Of a stretch of 64,000 bases of DNA, positions 4,283-61,004 are shown in pieces; the first letter of the stretch is position 1, and every line of letters begins with the position of its first letter. Source of the stretch: Harriotta raleighana (lineage: Eukaryota). The notes beneath the pieces are model-generated. The model ran no database searches. It was not told the origin of the DNA and worked only from the letters and a program-made list of their open reading frames with translations. The position numbers and the translations under genes are program-made. The stretch spans positions 1,132,910 to 1,196,909 of the forward strand of contig JBNZDD010013635.1 in the NCBI GenBank assembly GCA_050575255.1, in the 5' to 3' direction.

Positions 4283-4578
4283 GGAGTCCTGCAGCTCGGT
4301 GGTTAGAGCACTTGCCTCATAAATGAGAGACCTGGGATCAATTCTTGGCAGGGCGAAACCTTGTGCACATTTCCTTACTCCGCACACCTAATAATAATCC
4401 CTCAAGAAAAAAATAATATTTTGGTCAATTCAAACCATGACTGTTTGTGGGACACTGCTGTGTACAATTGGTTGCCACGTTTCACCCACAAAAAAAGTCA
4501 ATTGCACCATAATCTGTGAAACGATTTGAGACGTCTAGAAGATGTGAAAACCACTATAATGAAAATGCAAGGATTACT
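4283..4578 (+). mobile_element. tRNA-derived Deu-domain SINE, full length
   Basis: tRNA-like head with degenerate A/B boxes, TGTGGGACACTGCTGTG core, AATGCAAGGATTA tail. Confidence 0.9.
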
Positions 4579-8023: not shown

Positions 8024-8455
8024 CAGTAAAACCTTTGTTATCCAGCAATCTCGGGACCTGACTGGTGCCAATTGATTGAATATGCCGGATATTCGAGTGG
8101 CAAGTTGCTGAAAATCCAACAACAAAAAATTAACTTAGTTTAAAGCATACCATATTAATAATAGACTAAATAAAAGCAGAATATTGTAGGGATACTTACC
8201 AATAAAGCATTCCAGCACACTCGGTAAAATGATCGGTAAAAAAGCATTCCAGAGTTTGTTAAGTTTAATGAGTGCGAATGCTCCACGCATTGCACGCATG
8301 CTCCACGCATTGCACGCATGCTCAAATTGAGCATACCGCGAGTGTCCCGGATGGCTACAGTATGAAATCTGGTTTCTGGAATGGTGAATTATAGTGGGAG
8401 ACACCGGTTGGTTGAGTATGCCATTTGGTTGCGTACAGATAAACAAGGTTTAGTG
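8024..8455. mobile_element. Non-autonomous pogo/Tigger-type DNA transposon (MITE)
   Basis: TA|CAGTAAAACCTTTGTTATCC left end and a degenerate right end AGATAAACAAGGTTTAGTG. Interior is homologous, in reverse orientation, to 43086-43432 and carries a 20-bp tandem duplication. Confidence 0.8.
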
Positions 8456-18344: not shown

Positions 18345-18595
18345 AAACTTCTGATGGACCTCTGTCACATTTCTGTAAGGAATCAGTAGAGAGGAACACA
18401 GGTGCCCTAACCAACAAATCCCCCCAAAATAAAATCAGTCATTAGGTTCGTGGTTTCTTGTGGGACAGTGTTGTGCAAAATGGGACTGTAGCATTTGCCT
18501 AAAATATACACAACCATAGCAATAAATCCTGCGAAGAGCATCGAGACATCCTCCTGATATGAAAGGTGTTAGATCAAATGCAAGGATTATTATTG
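18345..18595 (+). mobile_element. Older DeuSINE, 3' part
   Basis: TTGTGGGACAGTGTTGTGCAAAATGG core and tail GAGACATCCTCCTGATATGAAAGG...AAATGCAAGGATTATTATT. Confidence 0.7.
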
Positions 18596-21880: not shown

Positions 21881-22516
21881 CAGTAAAAGCCCGTTTATCC
21901 AAAAAGCCCGTTTATCCGAAAAACCAGTTGAACCGGCACCTCAAAAAAAAAGGCCCAATTCGATAAACTGGAAGTTATCCGGCAGAATAGTGATGATGCA
22001 TTTAATGAATCGATTGTCGCACACGAGTACTGTGCAGGTATATCCGCTAGCCGCTAGTCGAGCCTAAACTCGGGCAACTGCCGTTTTTTTAAAAAGTTGC
22101 ACTACTGCTGTTTTTTTAAAAAGTTGCACTGCCATTTTATTTTCCTCCCGTGGCGGCCATTGCAGAAGTTAAGTATAAATAATAAAGTACTAATACAATA
22201 TTCTGTTATTATAGTATCGGTTATTAGTGTATTTAGTCTATTATTTATATGGCAGTGTACAAGATTTACAATAAAGTAGCCATAAATTTTGTGTTATTAC
22301 AGTATCTGTTATTACTGTATTTATTCTATTAGTGTACAACATTTACAATAAAATACCCATGCAATATTGTTATTATCTGTTATTATTTAGTCTATTATTA
22401 ATATGGCATGTGTTAAAATAATTTTAATTTTAATTTTAAAAAAAACGTTCAACTGGAAAGCTGTTTAACTGCCACTGGCCAGGTCCCATGGGTGCCAGAT
22501 AAACAGGCTTTTACTG
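21881..22516. mobile_element. Complete pogo/Tigger-type MITE (636 bp)
   Basis: TIRs CAGTAAAAGCCCGTTTATCC and AGATAAACAGGCTTTTACTG match 18/20. TA flanks both sides. The interior is AT-rich, internally repeated and has no transposase. Confidence 0.92.
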
Positions 22517-27224: not shown

Positions 27225-27388
27225 CACCCCCAGCACCAGCATCCCTCACCTAATCAATCACCCCAAATCCCCTAATTTCCCTCCACCCTACCTGATCCCG
27301 ATTCGGGTCTAAAACATTGACTGTTCAGCGCCTTGTGACATCCTCCTGATGTGAAAGACGCTATTCAAATGTAATTTTGTTGTTATTG
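27225..27388 (+). mobile_element. L2 3' UTR/tail
   Basis: C-rich UTR, then TTGACTGTTCAGCGCCTTGTGACATCCTCCTGATGTGAAAGACGCT and a (GTT)-type end. Confidence 0.75.
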
Positions 27389-32077: not shown

Positions 32078-34249
32078 CACATTGACCCATAGGAACTCCG
32101 CTCCAATAGGATTTATTTCTGGAGCTGCAGTTTGATGGGGTTCTTCAATATGGAATTGCATTAAGAATAACTTGTATTAGATTGTATTGCTCTGGTATGA
32201 TTTTATACCTGTGGATCACTAGGTCAATGCTTTCTCATTAAATATGTATATAGATGGATGCTACAGCTATAGTCAGGCTTTGCCACATACTACATACCAC
32301 ATACAGTAAACATGCATAAGAGGTGATATTGAGACATACACAAGCAACGCAGTTCAGGGAGCAAGAGAATTGACAGCTTTTACCCAATATGTGCTGTAGA
32401 TCAGGCTAGTAATGTAACACCATCCAGGGCATTGAGTGAATAAGAGCAGCTGGAAATGAAAATCGTAGGAGATTTTATTCAGTTTATATCATCGTTATGT
32501 AAACTGAGGGCATTCTCTAGCACTGGGTGGGGTCTAAGTATGTACATCCAAAGTGAACTTTGTTACATAACCTTCTTGTTCCATCAAAAAGTTTCAGTTA
32601 ATGCGTATCGTTTTTTTTACCCCCTAGTGATTAAAACAACTCCTGGGGTCGTAAATTATTTTGAGTCGACCAGGAAAAAAAGTCTAATTCTCTCAATTCT
32701 TGTATTCCACAGAGAGCAGCAGAAAGTAAGTTTAGGTTCTAGATCTAAAACCGATAATATTTATAGCGAGGTGCAGAAAAAGGTTGTGGCAGGATTCATT
32801 TTTGAAAAATATTTTGTTGCACAAGATAAAGTGGTGGTGAATAGTAATGAATAATAGATGCTGAATATCTATTATGGAGATGTTACAGGCTGTTCATGAA
32901 TCTGAAGCACAGAGTCTGTAAATAGACTGACATCCCAGTTGGAAATGCGTTTTATTGTCTGTCTATCAGAAGAGCAGTTCTTTAAACAGGATTTTTTTGA
33001 CTGGTTCTCAGTTTGCTTCTATTGATCTTAGAATAAGATGCAATGGTTTCATAACTGCAATAGCTTGGCTATCATTTATTCATAATTTCTTCACTTAAAC
33101 TGCTGGATGAGATATTTGAAAGATGGTAAAGCGGAGGCTTAGACTCTTACAATGTGGTGTTTTTTGTCACCACGAAGAACAATATTAATTGTCTAGTCAA
33201 GTCATACGCAAACATTTCAACTATTTCTTTCTGACAGCCCTCTAACATAGTTAATCTTTATCTTTTATTCATATTAAATTAAGTCAACCATAATAGAAAC
33301 TGTGCACATTCATCAGGGAAGAGATAAAGACTTCTATATCAGAGGTATCTCTTAATTGTTTTCTTATAGCCAGCAAGTTATCTTTGTTTGGACAGTTTAA
33401 ATCAGAATATGGCTTCTTTAATCATTGGAGCATTTATCTGGTCAGTTCTTCCAGATGCTCCTGCATAAAACCTGCAATCATATTCTGTGTTAACATTTGA
33501 CTCAGATAATATAAAGTAAAACATTTGAAACAGGATAATTATTCCTTCAGAGAAGAATAACAGGGCTCTGACTGTGAACTGGTGCTTGTGATGCATACCA
33601 GGGATCATGTCATAAATGGTTACTGCCATTTATTATCTAAAATCAATTCTCTTAAAAGGAAAACAAAAATGCTTTTTGTACCTGACCTCCTCATCAGACC
33701 CCCTAACTTTTACAAAGCATTCGCTCAGTTTCCTACACTGCTCCTTTTAGTCAGTGTTCAAAAGAGTCGGCCGATGAAGCTCCAAAACCTTCCTAGCCAA
33801 GTCTTAATTTAATATCAACTCTTTGCGTGACACCTCTACTGAGGTATTCTGTTTGGCCATTCAATAAGTCAGTTCCCTGAAGAGCCTGTGCTTATTCTAC
33901 ACTTGTTTTCGCTTTGGCAAAGCCTTGCGCCTACTGTGCTTTGCAACACAAGCTTGACCTCCATTGTGCTTGTTGTTTTCAAGTCACGCTGACAAGATCT
34001 TTCTGTAAATTAATCTTCCCGACTTGCCAACATGATGCACATGGACTTCACAAGAGACATTTACATACTTACTGTATGCTTTCTATACATTGAACCAAAA
34101 TATCCTTTCATGACTTGCACAAAGGCTTTTCCAACCTGCCTAACTTGAAAGCATTGGTCAGAGCTCAATATTTCCACACAGCACAGCTCAACTCAGAGGC
34201 TGTGCTTTTCTTCTTACTATACATCTTATTATATTCAGTGAAGCATGAT

Positions 34250-35800
34250 TGTGTGCAGTTAAGCTGCAGTCCAATTATTTAAAGGACCTGAATTTCTCCA
34301 GATTAGTTTGTGCTAAATTGGTTTCTGGACAAAGTGTCACTTACATAAGGCATGGATTTAGTCTGATCTCCATGCAGAGGATCTTGCTGACTTGAGGTAC
34401 TACAGTCAATAGTTACTAACATTCTTCTTCTGTTGCAAACACGATTTCATCAGCAAATCTCAAGTTTGTCAGCAGCCGACTATTGATGTTAATCCCACTT
34501 AGGTACTCGGCCGTTGCATTGCACATAATGCATTTTAGGAACAAATTGAAAAGATTGTCTGATAGGAGACAACCCTGTCACACAACAACTGATGTTCTGA
34601 ACCAATCTGTTAGTGCACCATTGATCTTGACTGCACTCTCTGCTCAATTATTGATAGTCTGGATGATGTTGATAAGCTTCACTGGAGCATTAAACAGTGC
34701 TGAAAGATATTAAAGAGACTTTTCTCCCAGAGTTAGTCAAATTCTGATAGAGTTCATGTAAATCAAAAAACATGATATTATTTGTCACAAATTTGTCAGT
34801 TATCAACCATAACCATAACGGGAACATCGTTTCAACAGTGCTACAACTGATATGAAACCATGTACAGTAGTTATCGTACTCGTGAATCCATTCATCGGCT
34901 AAATTGATTGCAAATCTAATAGAATTTCTTCCTTCCTTAAATTCTTTATAATTGTCCTGCATTCCTTTTGTTTCACAGGGACGACAGATGTAACAATCTT
35001 AGTTCATGCTGCAGGAAAATGTTGGATTTATAGTATGCATCACGTTACCAGGTGTTTCAGCTCGTATATCTTCTGAACTCACCACTGAGGTAATCTGCAC
35101 CTAGTCTGTTATAGAATTTGAGCTTCACAATCGCTGGTTTCATTTCATCTTTAATGATGTCTGGTTTTGTGGTCGCAGTCTGGTTGTTCCATAAATCATT
35201 GAGGGCAGATTTACACCTCCAGTTCATGGTTACAAAGCTCCTTACATACTCTAGCCAGACAGTCAGCAAGTATGACTTAAGTGGCAAGTTGTTTGTCATT
35301 CTTGCTGTTTGCAGTTGCCATTCACTTGGGTGGGGCGGTGTGTCATACAGATTGCTGGCGTTGCATTACAAAGATTCAAATGTATTGATGTCGGTTGTGT
35401 CTTTGCAAACTGATAGACTTGCTAACCTTGCTGGAATTGATCCACCAGTTTCTTATAGGCACAGTATTAATTAAGGCTCTATCTTTCGAAGCTCCATGCA
35501 ACTTTTCGGTTTCTTTTAAACTCAAATATTAAAAACATTGCGGTAAATGTGAGTAAAGGTCATTAGGTTCATTTTGAATATTACTTTGTGCCTTTATCAC
35601 CCTATTTAGTAGATTGTACTCTTTCCATCAGGCACTTTTCATATATCAGTTCTAAAGTTCCTTTCTACTAAATGTTATTTGTGTCCTTTGTTCCTAATTT
35701 CTGTAGCAATGCCAAGTTGCTATTATTCACTTGTATCACAATACCACAGCACACTATCTTGCAATCTATGGTCTGATCTGACATGATCAATGCAAAGTGC
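34250..35800 (-). mobile_element. Highly decayed RTE-clade LINE (endonuclease end plus reverse transcriptase)
   Basis: Minus-strand motifs occur in the correct order: SDHRL (about 35770), PDIIKDEMKPAIVKLK..GAD (about 35150), FKEGRNS (about 34930), SAVKINGALTDWFRTSVVV*QGCLLS (about 34600), GININSRLLTNLRFADEIV (about 34460). Stops and frameshifts throughout. Confidence 0.8.
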
Positions 35801-42973: not shown

Positions 42974-43563
42974 TAGAACATAAGAACATAGAAGATAAGA
43001 ACGTAATATAAGAACATGAGAAATGGGAGCAGGAGTAGGCCATTCAGCCCATCGAGCCTGCCCCGCCATTCAATCATGGCTGATACAGTAAAACCTCGTT
43101 CATCCGTGACCCGATCAACCGAATTGCTCAACCCCCTTCTGGGACAATTCCCCATTCCGGAATCGCGAGTTTGCTCACTTTGCGCATGTGTGCAATGTGT
43201 GCGCATGCGCACTTAGTAAACTTACGAACTGGGGTTTTTTACCGATCGGTAAAAAATGCTGTTTTACCAATTTTTTCTCAACTGTGCTGGAATGCTTTAA
43301 TGGTAAGTATCCATACAATATTCTGTTACTAAATAGTCTATTATTAACATGGTATGTTTTAAAATAAGTTACTTTTTTATGTTGGGTTTTCGCCAACATG
43401 TGCCCCGTTTATCCGGTACCGTCAATTAGTTGACCCCCCCCCCCGCCCTCTAAATTTAAGACAGTGACCCCTGGTTTTAGATTCTCCAACCAGGGCAAAC
43501 AATCTCCCACTATCTACTTTGTCGTGCCCCTTAATAATCTTATAGGTTTCTATAAGATCCCCT
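42974..43563 (-). mobile_element. CR1 3' fragment (second family) interrupted by a MITE
   Basis: (CATAAGAA)n terminus with GGAGTAGGCCATTCAGCCC at 42974-43085. CR1 sequence resumes at about 43444-43563. Confidence 0.85.
43086..43432. mobile_element. pogo/Tigger-type MITE, one end lost
   Basis: TA|CAGTAAAACCTCGTTCATCC left TIR; interior is a reverse-complement homologue of about 8090-8340. Confidence 0.85.
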
Positions 43564-44077: not shown

Positions 44078-44510
44078 ACCCTTGCCAGACTTCACTGGCT
44101 CCCTATCCCAGAGACGATTGACTTCAAGATCCTCAACCTTGTTTTCAAATCCCTCCACTCCTTTGCACCCCCCTATCTCTCTGATCTCCTCTCCCCCCAA
44201 ACCAGCACCCGCTGCCTTTGCTCCTCTGGGTCTGGCCTCCTCCATGTCCCCCGAATCCTCTGCCCCACCCTTGGCGGCTGTGTCTTCAGCCACTACGCCC
44301 CGAGGCTCTGGAACTCCCTTCCTCACTCCCTTCGCCTCGCCCCCTCTCTTCCCAGTTTCAGGTCACAGCTGAAGACCTTTCTCTTCGACCGCGCTTTTGG
44401 TCACCTTTGTGTCCCTGCCCCTGGCTCGGTCCCGGGATCCGCTGGTGTGAAGCGCTCTGAGACGCCATCTGGCGTGGAGGACGCTACATGAATCAAAGTT
44501 GTTGTTGTTG
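44078..44510 (+). mobile_element. L2 LINE 3' fragment (second family)
   Basis: Encodes LHWLPIPETIDFKILNLVFKSLH..APPYLSDLL and LKTFLFDRAF. Tail GTGAAGCGCTCTGAGACGCC...(GTT)n. Confidence 0.9.
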
Positions 44511-45724: not shown

Positions 45725-45814
45725 AAGACAGAGGCTCTCCCGATTGGCTTGTACCAGCACCTCTGCACCTCAGGCACTGGTAGCAGTGCCAAGTATGCAC
45801 ACTCCATCTTATCA

Positions 45815-46260
45815 ATCCAGCCAAGAACCTAGATATCTTGTTCGATCCTCAAATGTCCTTTCTTCCCAACATTAATGCCAAGACACGTTCTGCTTCCCTC
45901 ACCTCTGCAACATTGCCCGACTCCACCACTACCTCATCTCTCAGGTCGCTGAAACTCTCATATGTCTTCATTACTTACAGGCTTGACTATGCCAACGCGC
46001 TGCTTGTCGGCCTCCCCAATTTCTCCCTCCATAGGCTGCAGATCATCCAGAACGCTGCAGCTCATGTCCTCTCCTGCACCAATGGCCATGGCCTTGGCCT
46101 TAGCCTTGCCCCACCCACCCTGCCTCTTCAACCTCGTAATCCCCAACCAATCTGTCCTACCAAAACCAGTTCCAGTCCAAAACACTGACTGTCCAGTGCA
46201 TTGGCATGTCCTCCTGATGTGAAAGGCGCAATATTATATTATAATTATGTTGTTGTTGTT
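45815..46260 (+). mobile_element. L2 fragment with internal deletion
   Basis: KNLDILFDPQMSF and FITYRLDYANALLVGLPNFSLHRLQIIQNAAAHVL (L2 ORF2 post-RT region) joined to the 3' tail and (GTT)n. Confidence 0.9.
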
Positions 46261-46493
46261 CTTGCTGGAAACTGTGGAAATTAGGATCAGGAATTGTAAC
46301 TTGGATCACCCTCCTATTGTCTGTGGATCCACACCAGGGAAGAAAACAGCAGCAATACTGATTGGCACCCTTCAGATTGTGTGCATGTTTCCCATTTCTA
46401 ACTTTATACCAATCTGTATTACAATCAAGACAAGATATTTGGATACATTTGCAAGTGGTTTGAAACAGGCTGCCTAGTCAGTCTATTTAATAA

Positions 46494-46741
46494 AAATAAT
46501 AATAATAATCCTTGCATTTGACATTGCGCTTTTCACGTCTTCTATACATCTTAAAGCACTTCACAGAATATTCTGTCCTACCAAAACCAGCTCCAGTTCC
46601 TCTTGGTGCACGGCTGTGACTCCATAAACTCCAAATAATAATGAGCTGGATTTCAGAAGGACACTCACATTTAAGGAAGGGAGGGAATAGTTTAGACTAA
46701 TTGCAAGGTGAGTGCTCTAACCACTGCGCTACAGAACTCCA
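46494..46741 (-). mobile_element. SINE tail (46494-46571) and head (46704-46741) with interior replaced by foreign sequence
   Basis: Both ends match the SINE family; the middle matches 46151-46176 and about 47954-48065. Confidence 0.85.
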
Positions 46742-46876
46742 GCTTCCCCAGATAGCTGCTCCTATCAGTCTGATTTAGTTCCAATGATGACAAAAGATGT
46801 CTTAGAAAAGTGATGGATGGTCACGGAGGTACAACAAACAACACTGCAAGCTCCAGAACAATGTACAATGTATATT

Positions 46877-47830
46877 GTCGTCAAAAGGTTGACCTAATTA
46901 CTGAAACACCTCCTGTAACTGAGCCGGAGCCGCACAAATCCGGCGACACAGGCCTGAGCGGCGGGGACACGGGCCTGAGCGGCGGGGACACGGGCCTGAG
47001 CGGCGGGGACACGGGCCTGAGCGGCGGGGACACGGGCCTGAGCGGNNNNNNNNNNGGCCTGAGCGGCGGGGACACGGGCCTGAGCGGCGGGGACACGGGC
47101 CTGAGCGGATGCCGGGTGTATGTGGTGGAGCAGGAGGAGGAGGGTCGGGTGCGCACCCAGCATCCCAGTAAAGAGGAGGTGGATCAGCAGATGGCATCTA
47201 CAAGGAACGAACGCATTGATGGCCTGTTTCCCGCCTTTTGGAAGATGGTCCAGGCGGGCGGAGAGGACAGGGAGCGGTGGCTGGACTGTTGTTAATTGTT
47301 GTTGTTGCTTTTGTTTACTATTGTTGATGTTGTTTGTTGTTGTTGTTTGGCCCCCCCGGCCCTGACCTTTTCCCCTCCTTTTTCTTCTTCCCTCTCTCCC
47401 TTTCCCCCCTTCCCTCCCTCTTCCATCTTGCTCCCCTTTATCCCTGGTTTGCCTCCCACCACCTTTCCCTCCCTCTTCCCCCTTGCCACCATTTCTCCCT
47501 CCTTGTCCTCCTTGATTTCCCCCTTGTCCTCCTTTCTCCGCCCTTTCTCCGTCCTTTTTCCTCCCTGATTTTACCCCACCCGCTTTTTCCTCCGTCTCCC
47601 CCCTTGTCCCTTTTTCCCCCTTTCTTCCCTGGCCCCATTTCCGTGTGTGTTTGTGGGACACTGCTGTGCGCAATTTGGCTGCCGCGTTTCGCCCACAAAT
47701 ATACAGTCAGTTTTTCCTGCTTTTCTTCCCCCGACCCCTCCCCCCACTTGACTGTACAGCTCCTTGGGACGTCCTCCTGACGTGAAAGGCGCTATATAAA
47801 TATAATATAAATAAATAAAAATAAATAAAA
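46877..47830 (+). mobile_element. Composite non-autonomous retroelement: VNTR + short ORF + pyrimidine tract + SINE core + L2-type tail
   Basis: Abrupt GC/CpG-rich block ending in GGGACGTCCTCCTGACGTGAAAGGCGCTATATAAAT and (TAAA)n. The 5' boundary is uncertain. Confidence 0.7.
46941..47108. repeat. 21-bp GC-rich minisatellite spanning an assembly gap
   Basis: Unit GGCCTGAGCGGCGGGGACACG with essentially identical copies; Ns at 47046-47055. Confidence 0.95.
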
Positions 47831-48338
47831 TATTCAGGCCATGGCCATCTCCTTTATCGTAACCCTACCACTGATGCGTTCTGAAGGAATTTGACCTGTT
47901 TTCATTGCAGAGTTCGATTAGATTTTGGAAACGTAATGAGAATGCTTCAAACTCCCTCTTTATACATGGCTGTGACTCTACCTAAACTCCAAATAAAAAT
48001 AAGCTAGATTTCAGAAGGACACTCACATTTAAGGAAGGGAGGGAACAATTTACCCAGACTAATTGTGCAGTACTCAGCAAGTATTCCCTCCTCTATTCTG
48101 CTTTCGGGTGTCCCAAGGGCATTGATCAGGCTCAAAATGCAGGATAAACACAGACATTTCAAGGTACAGACAGACTCAAAATATTTTTTTTAATATTGCA
48201 CAAATGTGAAGCCCTATATTTTTACCATTAAAGTGGATTTTCAATGTTACATTACATGGAGGCAGTGAACTTGTGTTATCAGGAACTATACCGTTGCTAA
48301 CCCAGGTGTCATGTAAGCATGCTTTAATCTTTATAATA

Positions 48339-50735: not shown

Positions 50736-52030
50736 CAATTCAATGTAAGGAGCAAGTTATGTTTGTATAAAGTTGTAATTTTTGCCTTGACTTTGGCAGT
50801 GATTTGCAAATTATCATAGAGTTGTGAAAAGAAAACACCTCAGGCCACAAAACTAAAGCAATGTTGAAACAACTTACTCCAAATACAGTTTGATTATATT
50901 ACAATAATTATAAAGAGCGAGACTTAAACAAAACTATTCCATTGAGACTCTTCAAAATTCACATAGCATTACTTCCATGCTAATTCGATTATCCAAGTTT
51001 GTAAAGATGTAACTTTTTGAAGCAAAACCAAATTGCTACAAATCCAACAATTAGATTAAGTAAAACAGTGTTGGATTTGATCTGTTTCTGAAGTTGTGGA
51101 AGGACAAATGTAGGCTGACTGACATCTTTTCATTGAAGGAAATTCTCTCGCTGTTGCATTTTTCAGCACAACATTTCATTCTTCATTGCTCTGGTTTATA
51201 AAATAAAATGTACAATACATCATAAAGTGTTGCTCCAAAAGCACTGTGACATTAGTATAGCAGGGTCTGGCTTTTTAAAATAATTAAAGTTACTGGGAAT
51301 CCAAAGAGGCCACACAGTTCCTTTAAAGAACTGTTTGCAGTTCTACTGTTTGGTTTGGTGTCAACAGAGGTGAAAGTTGAGTTGGGTTTAATGCCCACAT
51401 ATGGCCTTTCCAAAGTGATAAGCTTTGCTAAATCACATTACCACAACACTAAATCAGTCAGGAACTCGACTTTCTAGCAGAGTGAAAGATCTCCTCTTGT
51501 ATCTTCAAAGCTAGTCTCTTCTCTGGAGCTTCACGCTGTAGTTATCCAGTTCATTTACACTGTGTTATGATTGTAGCTTTCATGGATATTTGGACAAAAT
51601 ATTAAAAACAAACCAATTATGCAGGGAAATTGTTTTAATTTATTTTGTTAAATATTCATCTAATTGAGACTTGTGAGCCTCATTAACTCCCAGATGGCAT
51701 TCTACAGTGTCAGCGTGGCAAGCTTTGCTTACATCTCAATAAAAGATGCACATATCCTGCCCATTCTGGATCATTCCTGTATCAAAGTCAATGCCGAGTG
51801 CAATCTAAATTGAATTAACTCAACTACTGGGGAACATGTCCAGTTGTAAAACAAACATACCTTAATTTGAACTGAATTCAACTCCAAAGTAGTTCTACTT
51901 CATTTAATGCTTTAGAAGAGTTAATTCCTGCCATTACTTTTTCTTAATTGATTCAGATTTTTATGACAATCAAAGGAAGTATCCACAACAAGAAACCATA
52001 GACTTAAAGACCTTTCTGCGCAGAATCAGG

Positions 52031-52360
52031 CACGCCCCCTACCTCTCCGACCTCCTGTCTCCTCAAACCAGCACCCGTTGCCTTCGCTCCACCGGGTCTG
52101 GCCACCTCTTTGTCCCCCATATCCTCTGCTCCACCATCGGCGGCCTTGCCTTCAGCCACTAAGCCCCGAGGCTCTGGAACTCCCTTCCTCACTCACTTCA
52201 TCTCACCCCCTCTCTTCCCAGTTTTAGGTCTCAGCTAAAGACCTTTTTCTTCGACCGTGCCTTTGGTCACCTTTCTACCCCTTCCTCTGGATCCGTTGTG
52301 AAGCGCTCTGAGATGCCGTCTGGCGTGGAGAGCACTATATAAATCAAAGTTTTTGTTGTT
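52031..52360 (+). mobile_element. L2 3' fragment (same family as 44078-44510)
   Basis: Colinear with about 44165-44510, including GAGGCTCTGGAACTCCCTTCCTCACTC. Confidence 0.9.
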
Positions 52361-55279
52361 GAAATCAAATGCAATACTATTCATCTGGAGGATAGGATCT
52401 GCATGTGACAAACATTTCTTTGGGTTTTGTTTGGGGATTGAAAAAGAGCTTAGTTGCTAAATTTTGAGAGAGTTTTTATTCTCTTTCAAAACATTTCCCT
52501 TCGCTGTTGAATTTGTTTGTTGCTTATTTTCTACCATCATGGTGCCTTTCCCAAATGATTATTACTTATGAGTGAATCTTAACAGTGAGAATGATTGCAA
52601 GTTACTATATTCAATGAACAGTGATTAGAAGCATAATCCTTTGCTACACTAAACAAGAGGCTCCAGCCCAATTCTCCCCAATTTGATTTGTGCTAATAAA
52701 TTGTTCCAGAATCCCAATCTAACAAAAACATCAGTCCCAGAAGTACAAACAGTGCAATATTTACAATATTTGGTCATGTGGCTTTCCGAATTTAAACCCA
52801 ATTGTGTCTCATGTTCATTGGGAACACCAGTAAATTGCAATTGGATAATCACAATTCACTGGGTACCAAGAATGGCTGGGAGAGATAAGCATTGATACTA
52901 TATTACATTAAGATGGTTTTGATTCAAATCCAGTTCCCAGAAGTGTGATTGTTAGACAGTAATGCTTGATGTTTCAAGTCTGGGAATCGATCTTGGATAC
53001 ATTTCTGATCAAGGGGGTTTAAGACTGTTTTTTCTTGATCCATACCAATCTGAATCCAACTAAATATAGAGCCACATTCTGTATTCCTGTTTCACTTCTT
53101 TCAAGTGTGTTGTTGTTAATTGGGTTAAGATTTCAACAACTTTTTGTTTGCTGGAGGTGGTGGGATGGGAGGGGAGTGAANATAGACTGGCTAGCTGACA
53201 GCAAAGGAGAGGAGTTAAGTATTGGCTGTGAGATAGAATAGAAAATGTTAACCCTGGAATGGGCCCTCTAGCCTTTTTCCTTTCTATGTATGTATTTATC
53301 AACACTCCATAGAACTAAACGTAATGCAAATTAAGTTTCAATACAGGCAACTAAACTTTACATTCAAAAGGCATGTAATAAGATGATCACTGGAAACTGC
53401 ATGAAACAAAAGACAAGGTAATACATGACTGAACACCTCTCAGGACCTCATGTACACAAGTACAATCTGTTAGTAGCTTGCTGTGGATGATCTGGACCAT
53501 TTACTTTGAGATGTGAGGCACAATAGAGAACTAGAATTGAAAATGGTAAAGTAGTGGACTGAAACATGATGCATATAGTGAAGGAAGGTTTCCCAAGTTT
53601 GTAATGAAAAATAACAAATAACTTGTATTAAAATGATTTTGTGGTAAATTACAGTAGCTTTTACTGCAGCTGTTTTCCTTAAGGTGGACTGTATGGAAGA
53701 TCCTCAAACCAATTGAAAGTGTACAATCTCATAATTGTGTAAGAGCACAAGTAAAGAGCGGGAAAATCGAATGAAAATAGTTAGCTCCAGAGGATGAGCT
53801 AGCCCAAGTTTAGACTTTAATGGGTTGAATTTCTTCCATTTTGTGCACTAATCGTCCCTCGATTTTTTCTCAAAATACAAAAAAAAAGGTTACTTGAACT
53901 TTTTGTCTAATCAGGAGCAAGTCAGACAGCTGCGAAATCTCAGCAATGATTACAAGAGGTATGGTAGAGGGTAAAGATGGGGTGGAGAGGAGATAAATTC
54001 AATGCCTTTTTATTAGAATATAATTTTTTTTAGTTGAAATAAAAACTGCAAAGAAATTGCCCTTGGCTACAGGCCAGTCCTTGTGCATATGTTACCAGTT
54101 ACTACTAACCACAAAGTTTCCAGCTGAACAAAGAAAGTGGGAAAGAATGTTTCTGAAAACAGCGAATGCAACTTGATCTGCTTCCCTTTTCTAACCATCT
54201 AATAAAGCCAGAGATGTCAACATTCACCAGGAATTTTGTAAGACCTCGATGCATCTGCCAAGCACCTGGGGAACCAAACCCAAATATAATGAGAGCAACA
54301 AAAACTTCAGGAGAGGAAAATATTGAGATGAAAACTTTGTCCACATTTGTAATTTTAGGTAGATTTAAAAAAAAAAAAACGCACTTACTCTATAAATCAA
54401 ATATTCTATGGTTATTCTATTCTATTTGTGTCCTTTATATTTAGGTATATGTTCTGTATCTTTATAGAATAGCAACGTGTGTCTTTTATAGTCTGGGCAT
54501 TGAATGACCATGAAAATCAAATTGAAGTATTCTGTTCCTCGCTGGACTGGATGGATTGCATATCCTAAACATGTTACGTTAACGAATGCATGAACAATTT
54601 TTAAATGAAAATATCATTTCAGCAGAGATAGCTTTGCTGCCTCATTAAGGATGACTAATTAATTGCATGAAATGTTATTGTCAGATAGGGCCTCAAAGAA
54701 TAAATCAAATCTGTGATGCATAACCTCAAAAGGGAAGTGGGTTAGGTTTAAAGCTGAATTGTCTAAAATGTCATTACCTCCTTCACACCCTGTGTCGAAT
54801 ACATTTACACATTTATATTTGTGCACACTGCGTTTCTGTGCACATACTTGTATATATTAAGTGCAAATCAGTCACAAATACAATCCATCACACATTCAGG
54901 CGGTAAATTGACAGACATATTATACCTTCAAATACTTTCATATGTCCATCAACATGCTCTTTGCTTCTCTTAATCCCTGCCATCAATCTGCAACAAGTTT
55001 CCAATGACCTTTTCAATATGGTACAAGGACAGTTCAGATCTGCACTTCAGCATATTTGTTTTAACTGTAATTTCCAGTATAAAATTGATTGCTCGCGGCA
55101 CCTGAAACCCATGATCCTCTGAATCACCGGGATTAGTGTCTGAGGCCATTTATCAATGCCTGAGCATTGCTCCAAATCACAGCGACATTTTTCACGCTTA
55201 AAACAAACAGTTCATCTGTCACCCCGACTGCGCAGATATCTCAGTTGAAGGTCTGGAAAAATGACAATTTGAGGAAATT

Positions 55280-55401
55280 CATCATTGTCTTCACAGCTGA
55301 GCATAAAAAGAATGTGCGCACAGCAGGACTGCTTTAGCAACATCATTGTCTTCACAGCTGAGCATAAAAAGAATGTGCGCACAGCAGGACTGCTTTAGCA
55401 A
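55280..55401. repeat. Perfect 61-bp tandem duplication
   Basis: 55280-55340 is identical to 55341-55401. Confidence 0.95.
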
Positions 55402-55897
55402 CTGCTTGCCAATAGCAGCTTCAAAACCTCAGAATCAACACAACACAAGGTGCTGCAAGATATTCTTCCTGCTGCTAAATACAGCAATTTAGCAAATCCC
55501 AGTCTACTTACCAGCAAGAGAATTTTACAATTTACAGCCAATACTGTATTTAATTGCAATAATGCAATACATTTCTGTCCACAGCATTTATTTTTGGCGC
55601 AAGGCGTGAACCTCAGGAAATACTGGTGAATCTGCCCCTAGGCTTGACATACTCATGTTTTGTTCCTTGGTGTATGCTAAGGGGCACTGGAATACAAGCA
55701 AAGTGATTCCTGCTGACTTACTGGAAACCTTCTGCGATGGGGGGGGGGGGCATCGCAGGATAACTGGAATATCATTATTTGCAATTTGAGGTTGTTCAGT
55801 ATTTTAGGCTGCCTGTTCCATACCCTTTAGTAGTTATGCTTTTACATCATCATGATTGAATTGAAGATTACATGAGCCTAGCAATTAGCAAAATAGT

Positions 55898-59632: not shown

Positions 59633-61004
59633 CAAAACTGAAGCAATGGAAGACCGTATGGCCTATGGAGCTCACTGTACTATTTTGGTATCCGGATAAA
59701 CCTCATTGTACCTTCAAGGTACAATCTCAATGAAAGTGGTTTGGAACCAGTAAAGCTTTGCTGAGTGTTTTTAGGTGGATTTACTTTCATAACCTCGATC
59801 GAAATGTCAATGTGGAATTTTGCTGGTGGCACCACAGAAACAAACACATCAAATCCACATCATATTCTGTGCAATTCACTCTATTCCTAAATACACACAA
59901 ACTGATTGCTTTCAAGTTTGCATTTATGTCTGGTTAGAAAGCAAACAAGTATATCTGGCGAGTGAGTGACAATAGAATCAGCAGCAAATAGTGGTCGGTA
60001 AGCTGTTGCCAAAGGAGCACTCTCCTAATTGCGGAGGATTTGTGCTGGAACGATTACCATCAAGAAAAATAGTCCAGAGTGTGGACCTGGTAGGTCACGG
60101 ACAACTCTAACTCGACGAGCTTATTAGTTGACGGTAGGTGTCTTGCTCTCCCCCTGGTTTGATAGCCCAATCTCTTTGCTGAAGCAAACATTGTATTGCC
60201 TTTCAATGACCTTGGAGAATGCTGTGAGCAATTATACAGAAACCTGCTTTATATTTTCTACAGGATTCTTTGTTATTCATTTCAGTGTAAAAACACTTAT
60301 CCTCTTGATGTGAAAAATGCTAAATAAATATAACTCACATGGCATTATATTGTGTAATGTTTTGGGTTGAACAGGATTAGTTACAGTATGTTTATGGTTG
60401 TATTTTTTTTCTGACAATGCAGAAATGAGCACAAAAAACCCTAACTGTACATTGCTGTGGACCTTTAACTTGCAGTTGAGACATCTCCAAAGTGCTTCGC
60501 AGGATTTACTATAAAGTGCAGTGACTGCAGTTTCTGGGTGATTAGAAAAGCAGGGTGTATCCTCCTGGGTACAAATGCATAATCCATACAAGGCAAATAT
60601 ATACAAAAAATACAGTAGTTGTGAAACTCTCAGTAGTTTAAGTGCTCCACCTTGTGCAATGCTGTGTGAGTGGCACTATATAAACAGAGGTTATTGGAGT
60701 TTAGTTTTGAGACTCTGGACTTTACAAACAAGAATTGGATTTAACAATTCAAAGATAAATTTGATCATGTTGGAATAATTTGTTGGATTCATTTATGTTT
60801 CCACGGAAACACTATTCACAGCAACTAAAGCATGTAACACTTTAACATCTGAAGCACCAGCAGGTCGCATTTTAGGTGATTGCGTTTGGGATGCTGTAAA
60901 AGACAGAATGCAGCGATTTTGAATTAACATAGGATTCCTAAAGAGGCTATATTTCTTAGGCAGGCAACCCTGATTTAAAGAGGGAAAGTAAAACAGACCA
61001 AAAA

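Follow-up and report, generated by a model that had tools for sequence, protein, structure and literature searches.

Structure and surroundings of the insertion

The 64-kb window, meaning the whole stretch of DNA that was analysed, is about 38% GC, contains many retroposon fragments and is depleted in CpG, with an o/e of about 0.3. A Pfam scan of 290 of the non-repeat, stop-to-stop frames of at least 52 aa, together with two pieces of the element described here (292 window ORFs in all), returned no family above cut-off and five sub-threshold hits, so the region looks intergenic or intronic. Within it, sequence inspection delimits an element of about 950 bp on the + strand, at 46877-47829 (Table 1). 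An earlier note on this DNA had proposed six modules in a fixed order, namely a VNTR, a coding-like segment, a (GTT)-rich stretch, a pyrimidine tract, a SINE-derived piece and an L2-type 3' end, and all six were recovered at their positions and in that order. The term "composite" is likewise apt, since a SINE piece, an L2-type tail and unique sequence are joined in one insertion. The insertion is real and young; it is a composite, carries an L2-type tail and includes an ORF end that has no recognised relative.

Table 1. Features of the element and its immediate borders
Feature	Position	Strand	Basis or remark
Candidate left TSD, ATATT	46872-46876	+	Weak
5' part, Pro/Glu/Thr-rich linker-like peptide, in frame with the ORF	46877-46940	+	Coding score rises from about 46890
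VNTR, 21-bp GC/CpG-rich units, about 8 unit positions, (GLSGGDT)n in frame	46941-47108	+	TRF (period 21, 8.0 copies)
10-N assembly gap inside the VNTR	47046-47055	.	In register with the unit; real unit number may differ
Coding-like ORF end, unique, of 61 codons and a TAA stop	47109-47295	+	Codon-position bias; no relative found
(GTT)-rich stretch immediately following the stop; beginning of the putative 3' UTR	47296-47349	+	TRF, inspection
Pyrimidine tract, 88% C+T, degenerate internal duplication of about 120 bp	47350-47647	+	Composition, half-versus-half alignment
Probable SINE pre-tail piece, sense, one hairpin	47648-47712	+	Alignment, folding
C/T-rich linker	47713-47747	+	Like the short pyrimidine 3' UTRs of local L2s in composition only
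L2-type 3' tail	47748-47806	+	Alignment to local L2 ends, folding
Outer stem of the tail	47758-47765/47786-47793	+	
Inner stem of the tail	47769-47773/47779-47783	+	
Tail loop, CTCCT	47774-47778	+	
A-rich (TAAA)n-like terminal repeat with AATAAA	47801-47829	+	Inspection, TRF
Candidate right TSD, ATATT	47830-47834	+	Weak

The true 5' boundary is uncertain and lies somewhere within 46774-46930. The candidate target-site duplication is at chance level, its 5-mer being present in 26% of random 100-bp stretches, and the codon bias of the 5' part taken alone is not significant. Rfam gave no tRNA or 5S match in 46400-48200, nor any at gathering level, and no such head is seen in the element. No CT-hexamer/Alu-like region was seen at 46742-46940, and the copy is probably 5'-truncated. 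Neither a reverse transcriptase (RT) nor an endonuclease was found in the 950 bp present, the 5' part being missing. The window holds one copy of the element, and no second copy of the VNTR unit, the unique segment, the pyrimidine tract or the linker was detected in its 64 kb.

The surrounding DNA has a history of its own. Just upstream, 46778-46832 (+) gave a sub-threshold match to the C/D snoRNA SNORD109A (E 0.13), which at 22 bits against the 35 required was taken as chance. A SINE on the - strand is split, its head (46701-46741) being separated from its tail (46486-46576) by 125 bp of non-SINE DNA that consists of a 26-bp copy of a nearby L2 UTR (46151-46176) and a segment X (46599-46703). 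On the far side of the element, at 47955-48065, lies a second copy of segment X with 85% identity, and the pair is probably an old local duplication. The two copies were rejected as LTRs, because at 85% identity they must predate the element by far and they do not adjoin it at either end. A local inversion was also discarded as the link between the SINE piece and the SINE tail of 46486-46576, that tail being older (11% divergent). Elsewhere in the window, 55280-55402 contains a perfect 61-bp tandem duplication, from either a recent event or assembly, and dispersed repeats at 8069-8248, 22376-22437 and 43255-43432, about 80% identical and neither SINE nor L2 tail, are possibly a small DNA transposon.

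The VNTR and the assembly gap

A 21-bp, CpG-rich VNTR of near-identical, in-frame units had been claimed, and the TRF result agrees. The six complete N-free units are identical, as judged from five whole internal units and the flanking partial units. The array has a GC content of 80% and a CpG o/e of 0.93, against 0.3 in both flanks, and it reads (GLSGGDT)n within an ORF at 46774-47295 (+). In its first unit the same seven codons appear in slightly altered form, which suggests that a single 21-bp stretch of the ORF was multiplied by slippage. The VNTR looks like in-frame slippage of seven codons inside a reading frame and not like an SVA-type domain.

The assembly gap sits inside this GC-rich perfect repeat, where two VNTR-sharing loci might have been wrongly joined, which would make the 5' part foreign to the rest. 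Such a misassembly is improbable, given that unit starts lie exactly 21 apart across the 10 Ns, that the sequence is contiguous between 47056 and 47829, a span with 2.5 units, the ORF end, the SINE piece and the tail, and that the presence of segment X on both sides fits a single locus.

The reading frame

The unique segment ending at 47295 translates as the earlier note had it (47110-47292), and its frame, already open at 46774, reaches some 100 bp beyond the proposed element start on the 5' side. The open frame alone is unremarkable, as 31% of shuffles were equally open. The codon-position bias of 47110-47292, with G-rich first, A-rich second and G/C-rich third positions, was reached by 0.2% of 2000 dinucleotide shuffles, a P of about 0.002 that is somewhat optimistic because the segment had been chosen by eye as coding-like. 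The same bias was reached by 5 of 2110 background stretches of the window, two of which fall in L2 ORF2 remnants. This signal is confined to about 46890-47295, and the score is negative upstream of about 46860, in rough agreement with the proposed element start.

For the predicted peptide itself, no counterpart was found. The ORF end is unlike the ...LFDRAF end of local L2 ORF2 copies, and tblastn gave no match between it and local L2 ORF2 ends. The 61-aa segment had no Pfam match at E<=1, none among 1.84 billion representative proteins at E<=0.001, none among PDB sequences at E<=10, and none among the seven candidates from a word-indexed search of longer proteins; its best Atlas values, 0.78 and 0.86, were below the useful range. 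The same word-indexed approach, applied to the 5' part with the VNTR peptide, yielded no match among 8000 scored candidates, and exact look-ups of the element peptide returned 0/7 and 0/4. A single-sequence structure model of the 61-aa segment (pLDDT 52) had no informative fold, with no Foldseek match and a best Z of 2.6 in the VIA structure search. These protein negatives are weak: no positive control showed the collections to contain proteins derived from repeats in this lineage, and a degraded RT fragment of the window had no match in them either. By motif, the segment may resemble the C-termini of RTE ORF2. With no protein relative found, identification of the ORF as an ORF1 is unsupported. 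A plasmid or vector origin was set aside after no plasmid match was obtained, and a bacterial origin after a GTDB scan in which 1 of 185 candidate stretches gave an 18-residue match to a planctomycete MAG, taken as chance.

The putative 3' untranslated region

The (GTT)-rich stretch that had been described is present directly after the stop. The tract that follows, described as about 290 bp of nearly pure pyrimidines, proves to be the window maximum, 47351-47640 being its most pyrimidine-rich 290-bp stretch (0.89 C+T, the next reaching 0.73). The two halves of the tract align better than base shuffles (P 0.004), with an autocorrelation that is not significant. The occurrence of this decayed duplication beside intact CpGs suggests an old master sequence that was copied recently. 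For the linker, no significant sequence match to local L2 3' UTRs was found.

A rival reading holds that no family exists. Local L2s end in (GTT)n, and the (GTT)-rich stretch could be a separate tail; the insertion would then be a one-off chimera in which the 3' end of another transcript, with its own (GTT)-rich tail, was joined to an L2 UTR and SINE piece in a single retrotransposition or in two adjacent insertions, the VNTR expanding locally afterwards. The single copy in the 64-kb window and the rearranged neighbourhood, with its split SINE and duplicated segment X, agree with such an event, and composite insertions of this sort are described in coelacanth in the available text of PMC4255032. 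Against it, the tail profile finds no stem-loop tail before the (GTT)-rich stretch, and the CpG o/e of 0.52-0.96 in every CpG-bearing module of 46877-47800, compared with 0.3 in the flanks, fits one event and one age; the source of the ORF would, moreover, still need explaining. We consider a chimera of this kind unlikely, while giving it appreciable weight.

The SINE-derived piece and the age of the insertion

The commonest SINE of the window is about 310 bp long and has a tRNA-like head (Rfam tRNA matches at 4285 and 27805) and an L2-type tail; 13 aligned copies diverge by 5-29%. Its body presumably resembles a CORE domain; together with the architecture of this SINE and with tails in the window that are presumably of shark-type CR1, this suggests that the DNA comes from a holocephalan or another chondrichthyan. 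An old copy at 18458-18594 (+), 29% divergent, carries the L2-type CTCCT loop and not that of the young SINEs, which suggests that the SINE lineage changed its L2 partner.

A piece of about 60 bp nearly identical to the youngest SINE of the window had been noticed, and 47648-47712 indeed matches the SINE at 16670-16607, the least diverged of the 13 aligned copies (5.4%), with 95.4% identity (E 2e-21). The accompanying label of "Deu core" is probably a misnomer. Within the aligned local SINE, the piece begins 161 nt before the 3' end, and PMC5499810 places the Deu match at about positions 124-258 of SacSINE1, apart from a separate 3' region of about 160 bp shared by CmiSINE and SacSINE1-CM. Judged by position, the piece falls in that 3' region and is therefore probably not the Deu core; it probably represents the pre-tail region of a CmiSINE-like tRNA SINE. 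It folds into a hairpin (z -2.71) with a 14-bp stem formed by 47644-47657 and 47692-47705. The stem is free of bulges, with four pairs made by bases that differ from the SINE, whose own stem carries a 4-nt bulge; selection on the hairpin could account for this, as could chance.

The same piece dates the insertion. It shows 0/53 non-CpG changes, whereas seven SINE copies of the window together show 32/367 (P about 0.007), a rate inflated by the partial misalignment of one copy. It has kept 7/9 CpG sites against 23/68 (P about 0.009), the sites having been defined from other SINE copies without the element. The insertion is accordingly young, as had been proposed. The earlier note had read the retained CpGs as a sign of youth or of protection from methylation: youth explains both results, and protection alone accounts for the CpG result and leaves the non-CpG result unexplained.

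This comparison also bears on whether the element is the last exon of a host gene, with a stop, a 3' UTR and an AATAAA, SINE and L2 scraps within the UTR, and CpGs protected as an island. The frame open from 46774, the codon bias and the AATAAA at the end would all suit an exon. We nevertheless hold it to be very improbable: the absence of any non-CpG change in the SINE piece indicates youth and not merely missing methylation, the tail ends exactly where L2 RNAs end, and the searches above gave neither a protein match nor a Pfam family above cut-off in the 292 window ORFs.

The 3' tail and the resident L2 elements

The claim that the element ends in an L2-type tail, with the same 3' motif as local L2 copies, is upheld by alignment, fold and loop. 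The tail (47748-47806) matches the L2-type ends at 27317-27375 and 46186-46247 at 50/59 and 52/61 aligned positions, respectively, compared with 39/50 for the tail of the youngest SINE. Its stem-loop has a z of -2.47, with 3/200 shuffles folding as well, and the CTCCT loop is common to the element and the L2-type ends at 27317 and 46186 and differs from the young-SINE loop. A tree built from 13 tails places the element apart from the SINE clade (support 95/94) without resolving which L2 subfamily is nearest. Across these tails, 83.8% of stem cells pair, against 30-56% for slid controls, and covariation in the stem does not exceed that of shuffles (46/500).

A tail profile recovers 26 L2- or SINE-type ends in the window. 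The (TAAA)n ending that had been remarked in the element is, by eye, the only clear case among them, the local L2 copies ending in (GTT)n; this hints at a distinct lineage. A doubtful exception is found at 60299-60345 (+), where a 35-bp tail fragment has an A-rich ending like that of the element and is possibly a heavily truncated older relative.

In the L2 copy at 45784-46260 (+), the tail is physically joined to an ORF2 remnant, which is probably L2 by its motifs, Pfam giving no match there. This remnant jumps from the interior of ORF2 to the 3' UTR and lacks the ORF2 C-terminal part of other copies. A second L2 subfamily with a different stem-loop is represented at 44078-44510 and 52030-52361 (+), 83% identical, one of them with an open ORF2 end. 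A decayed, RT-bearing LINE remnant at about 33800-35600 (-), without a Pfam or protein match, is presumably RTE-like by its motifs.

A bona fide L2 tail invites the question of whether the element is simply an extended 3' UTR that belongs to a young, autonomous L2 family and was truncated before ORF2, with a captured coding-like piece and SINE hairpin or a small downstream ORF. Local L2 UTRs are C/T-rich, and truncation inside a long UTR would be expected where most L2 copies are, as in this window, short pieces of the 3' end. By eye, however, the UTRs of local L2 copies that keep ORF2 span about 100 bp at most from the ORF end to the tail, and a UTR gives no reason for the codon bias or for a unit length that is a multiple of three (a prior of 1 in 3). 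An autonomous L2 origin is, on balance, rather unlikely.

In zebrafish, retrotransposition by L2 ORF2 proteins requires the cognate 3' stem-loop, and the loop above all (PMC4176376). Given this requirement and a tail of the local L2 kind, the ORF2 protein of an L2 of the matching subfamily is the likely mobiliser of the element.

Proposed origin and its significance

The explanation that we tentatively favour, at somewhat under an even chance, is that the element is a copy, truncated at its 5' end, of a non-autonomous retroposon that bears an ORF and depends on an L2, nearer to HAL1 and Ag-Sponge than to SVA. A master locus would be transcribed, presumably by pol II, because no tRNA or 5S head was seen. 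Its RNA would consist of a single ORF, ORF1-like or captured, followed by a T/C-rich 3' UTR of about 530 nt, with no RT between. The UTR may have grown from the pyrimidine-rich UTR of an L2, the SINE hairpin being taken in through template switching or recombination, and slippage within the ORF, acting on a single 21-bp stretch, would have produced the VNTR, whose changes in length keep the frame. The ORF2 protein of a resident L2, from a subfamily with a CTCCT or CTCCC loop, would then bind the tail and reverse-transcribe from the 3' end, and an early stop would leave the 5'-truncated copy. Against this explanation stand the single copy in the window, the lack of any protein match, a stem covariation no better than in shuffles, a tree that singles out no nearest L2 subfamily, the gap within the VNTR and a TSD that does not rise above chance; an RT may also have lain further upstream and been lost by truncation.

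A broader proposal is possible though unlikely, namely that a cartilaginous fish harbours a currently active, dispersed, protein-coding composite family that parasitises a stringent L2, has a length-polymorphic in-frame VNTR and, in its UTR, a hairpin captured from a SINE, and encodes a protein outside all known families; the SVA-style VNTR-composite design would then have arisen independently of apes and of L1. If the element proves to be a multi-copy counterpart dependent on a stringent L2, the VNTR-composite design would arise convergently, and a tail of about 60 nt would be enough for an L2 to carry ORF-bearing cargo. Multiple copies would also indicate recent L2 activity in a slowly evolving lineage and provide polymorphic markers. 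The loop difference between the element and the young SINE predicts that the two use different L2 partners. If the element is single-copy or an L2 UTR, it would represent an ordinary chimeric or truncated insertion.

Comparison with known systems

Among titles and abstract openings in the literature, none concerned an L2-dependent VNTR composite; the family may already be catalogued in a repeat library such as Repbase or Dfam. In the available text and supplementary tables of the elephant-shark genome literature (PMC3964593), nothing on repeat families was found, and SINE/LINE pairs of sharks are listed in PMC3747384.

The commonest SINE of the window fits, by description, the CmiSINEs of Callorhinchus milii (SINE2-1_CM, SINE2-1B_CM) and SacSINE1-CM, with the partner L2-2_CM; the average divergences given in PMC5499810 are 12.6 and 17.2%. 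The element carries about 62 bp that probably come from the pre-tail region of this SINE, but it lacks a tRNA head, has three times the length and bears an L2-type loop instead of the young-SINE loop. Among stringent L2 LINEs, ZfL2-1 and ZfL2-2 of zebrafish and UnaL2 of eel (PMC4176376) resemble it in the architecture of the 3' tail, where a short loop tops an upper and a lower stem and a terminal repeat follows; those elements are autonomous, whereas the present one shows no RT or endonuclease. Its tail, common with resident L2s, folded as a stem-loop and ending in a short-unit repeat, has the features of an L2-dependent retroposon.

The coelacanth CoeG-SINE and composite insertions offer another parallel, being retroposed inserts of non-coding type, about 1-1.4 kb long, with short or absent TSDs, in a slowly evolving fish; unlike the element, they are not credited with a VNTR or an ORF in the available text of PMC4255032.

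The designation "SVA-like", used in the earlier note, holds for architecture and fails for unit size and mobiliser, and the element is not a member of SVA. In SVA, LAVA, PVA and FVA, as here, the VNTR is GC-rich and is followed on the 3' side by a mosaic of unique sequence and retroelement pieces, a resemblance that is analogous and not homologous. The accessible text of PMC4432496 describes VNTR composites as hominoid-specific and L1-dependent, with a CT-hexamer/Alu-like 5' region and VNTR units of 30-50 bp in SVA and LAVA, which use L1; LAVA carries Alu and L1 pieces, and PVA a gene exon. The element differs in that its unit is 21 bp, its VNTR lies inside an ORF, no CT-hexamer/Alu-like part was seen, its tail is an L2-type stem-loop, which does not point to L1 mobilisation, and it has no convincing TSD.

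Closer than SVA, on the favoured explanation, are the non-autonomous LINEs that retain ORF1, an established class that includes HAL1 (L1), Ag-Sponge (CR1) and HeT-A (Jockey), with no L2-derived example named in the available text of PMC5786205. The element differs in its L2-type partner, its additional SINE piece and in-frame VNTR, and the putative nature of any ORF1 homology. Like these LINEs, it has an ORF directly followed by a LINE 3' end with no RT seen, and it would depend on a partner LINE; the coding-like frame stops at 47295, and what follows, up to the tail, is 530 nt of non-coding sequence with no ORF2.
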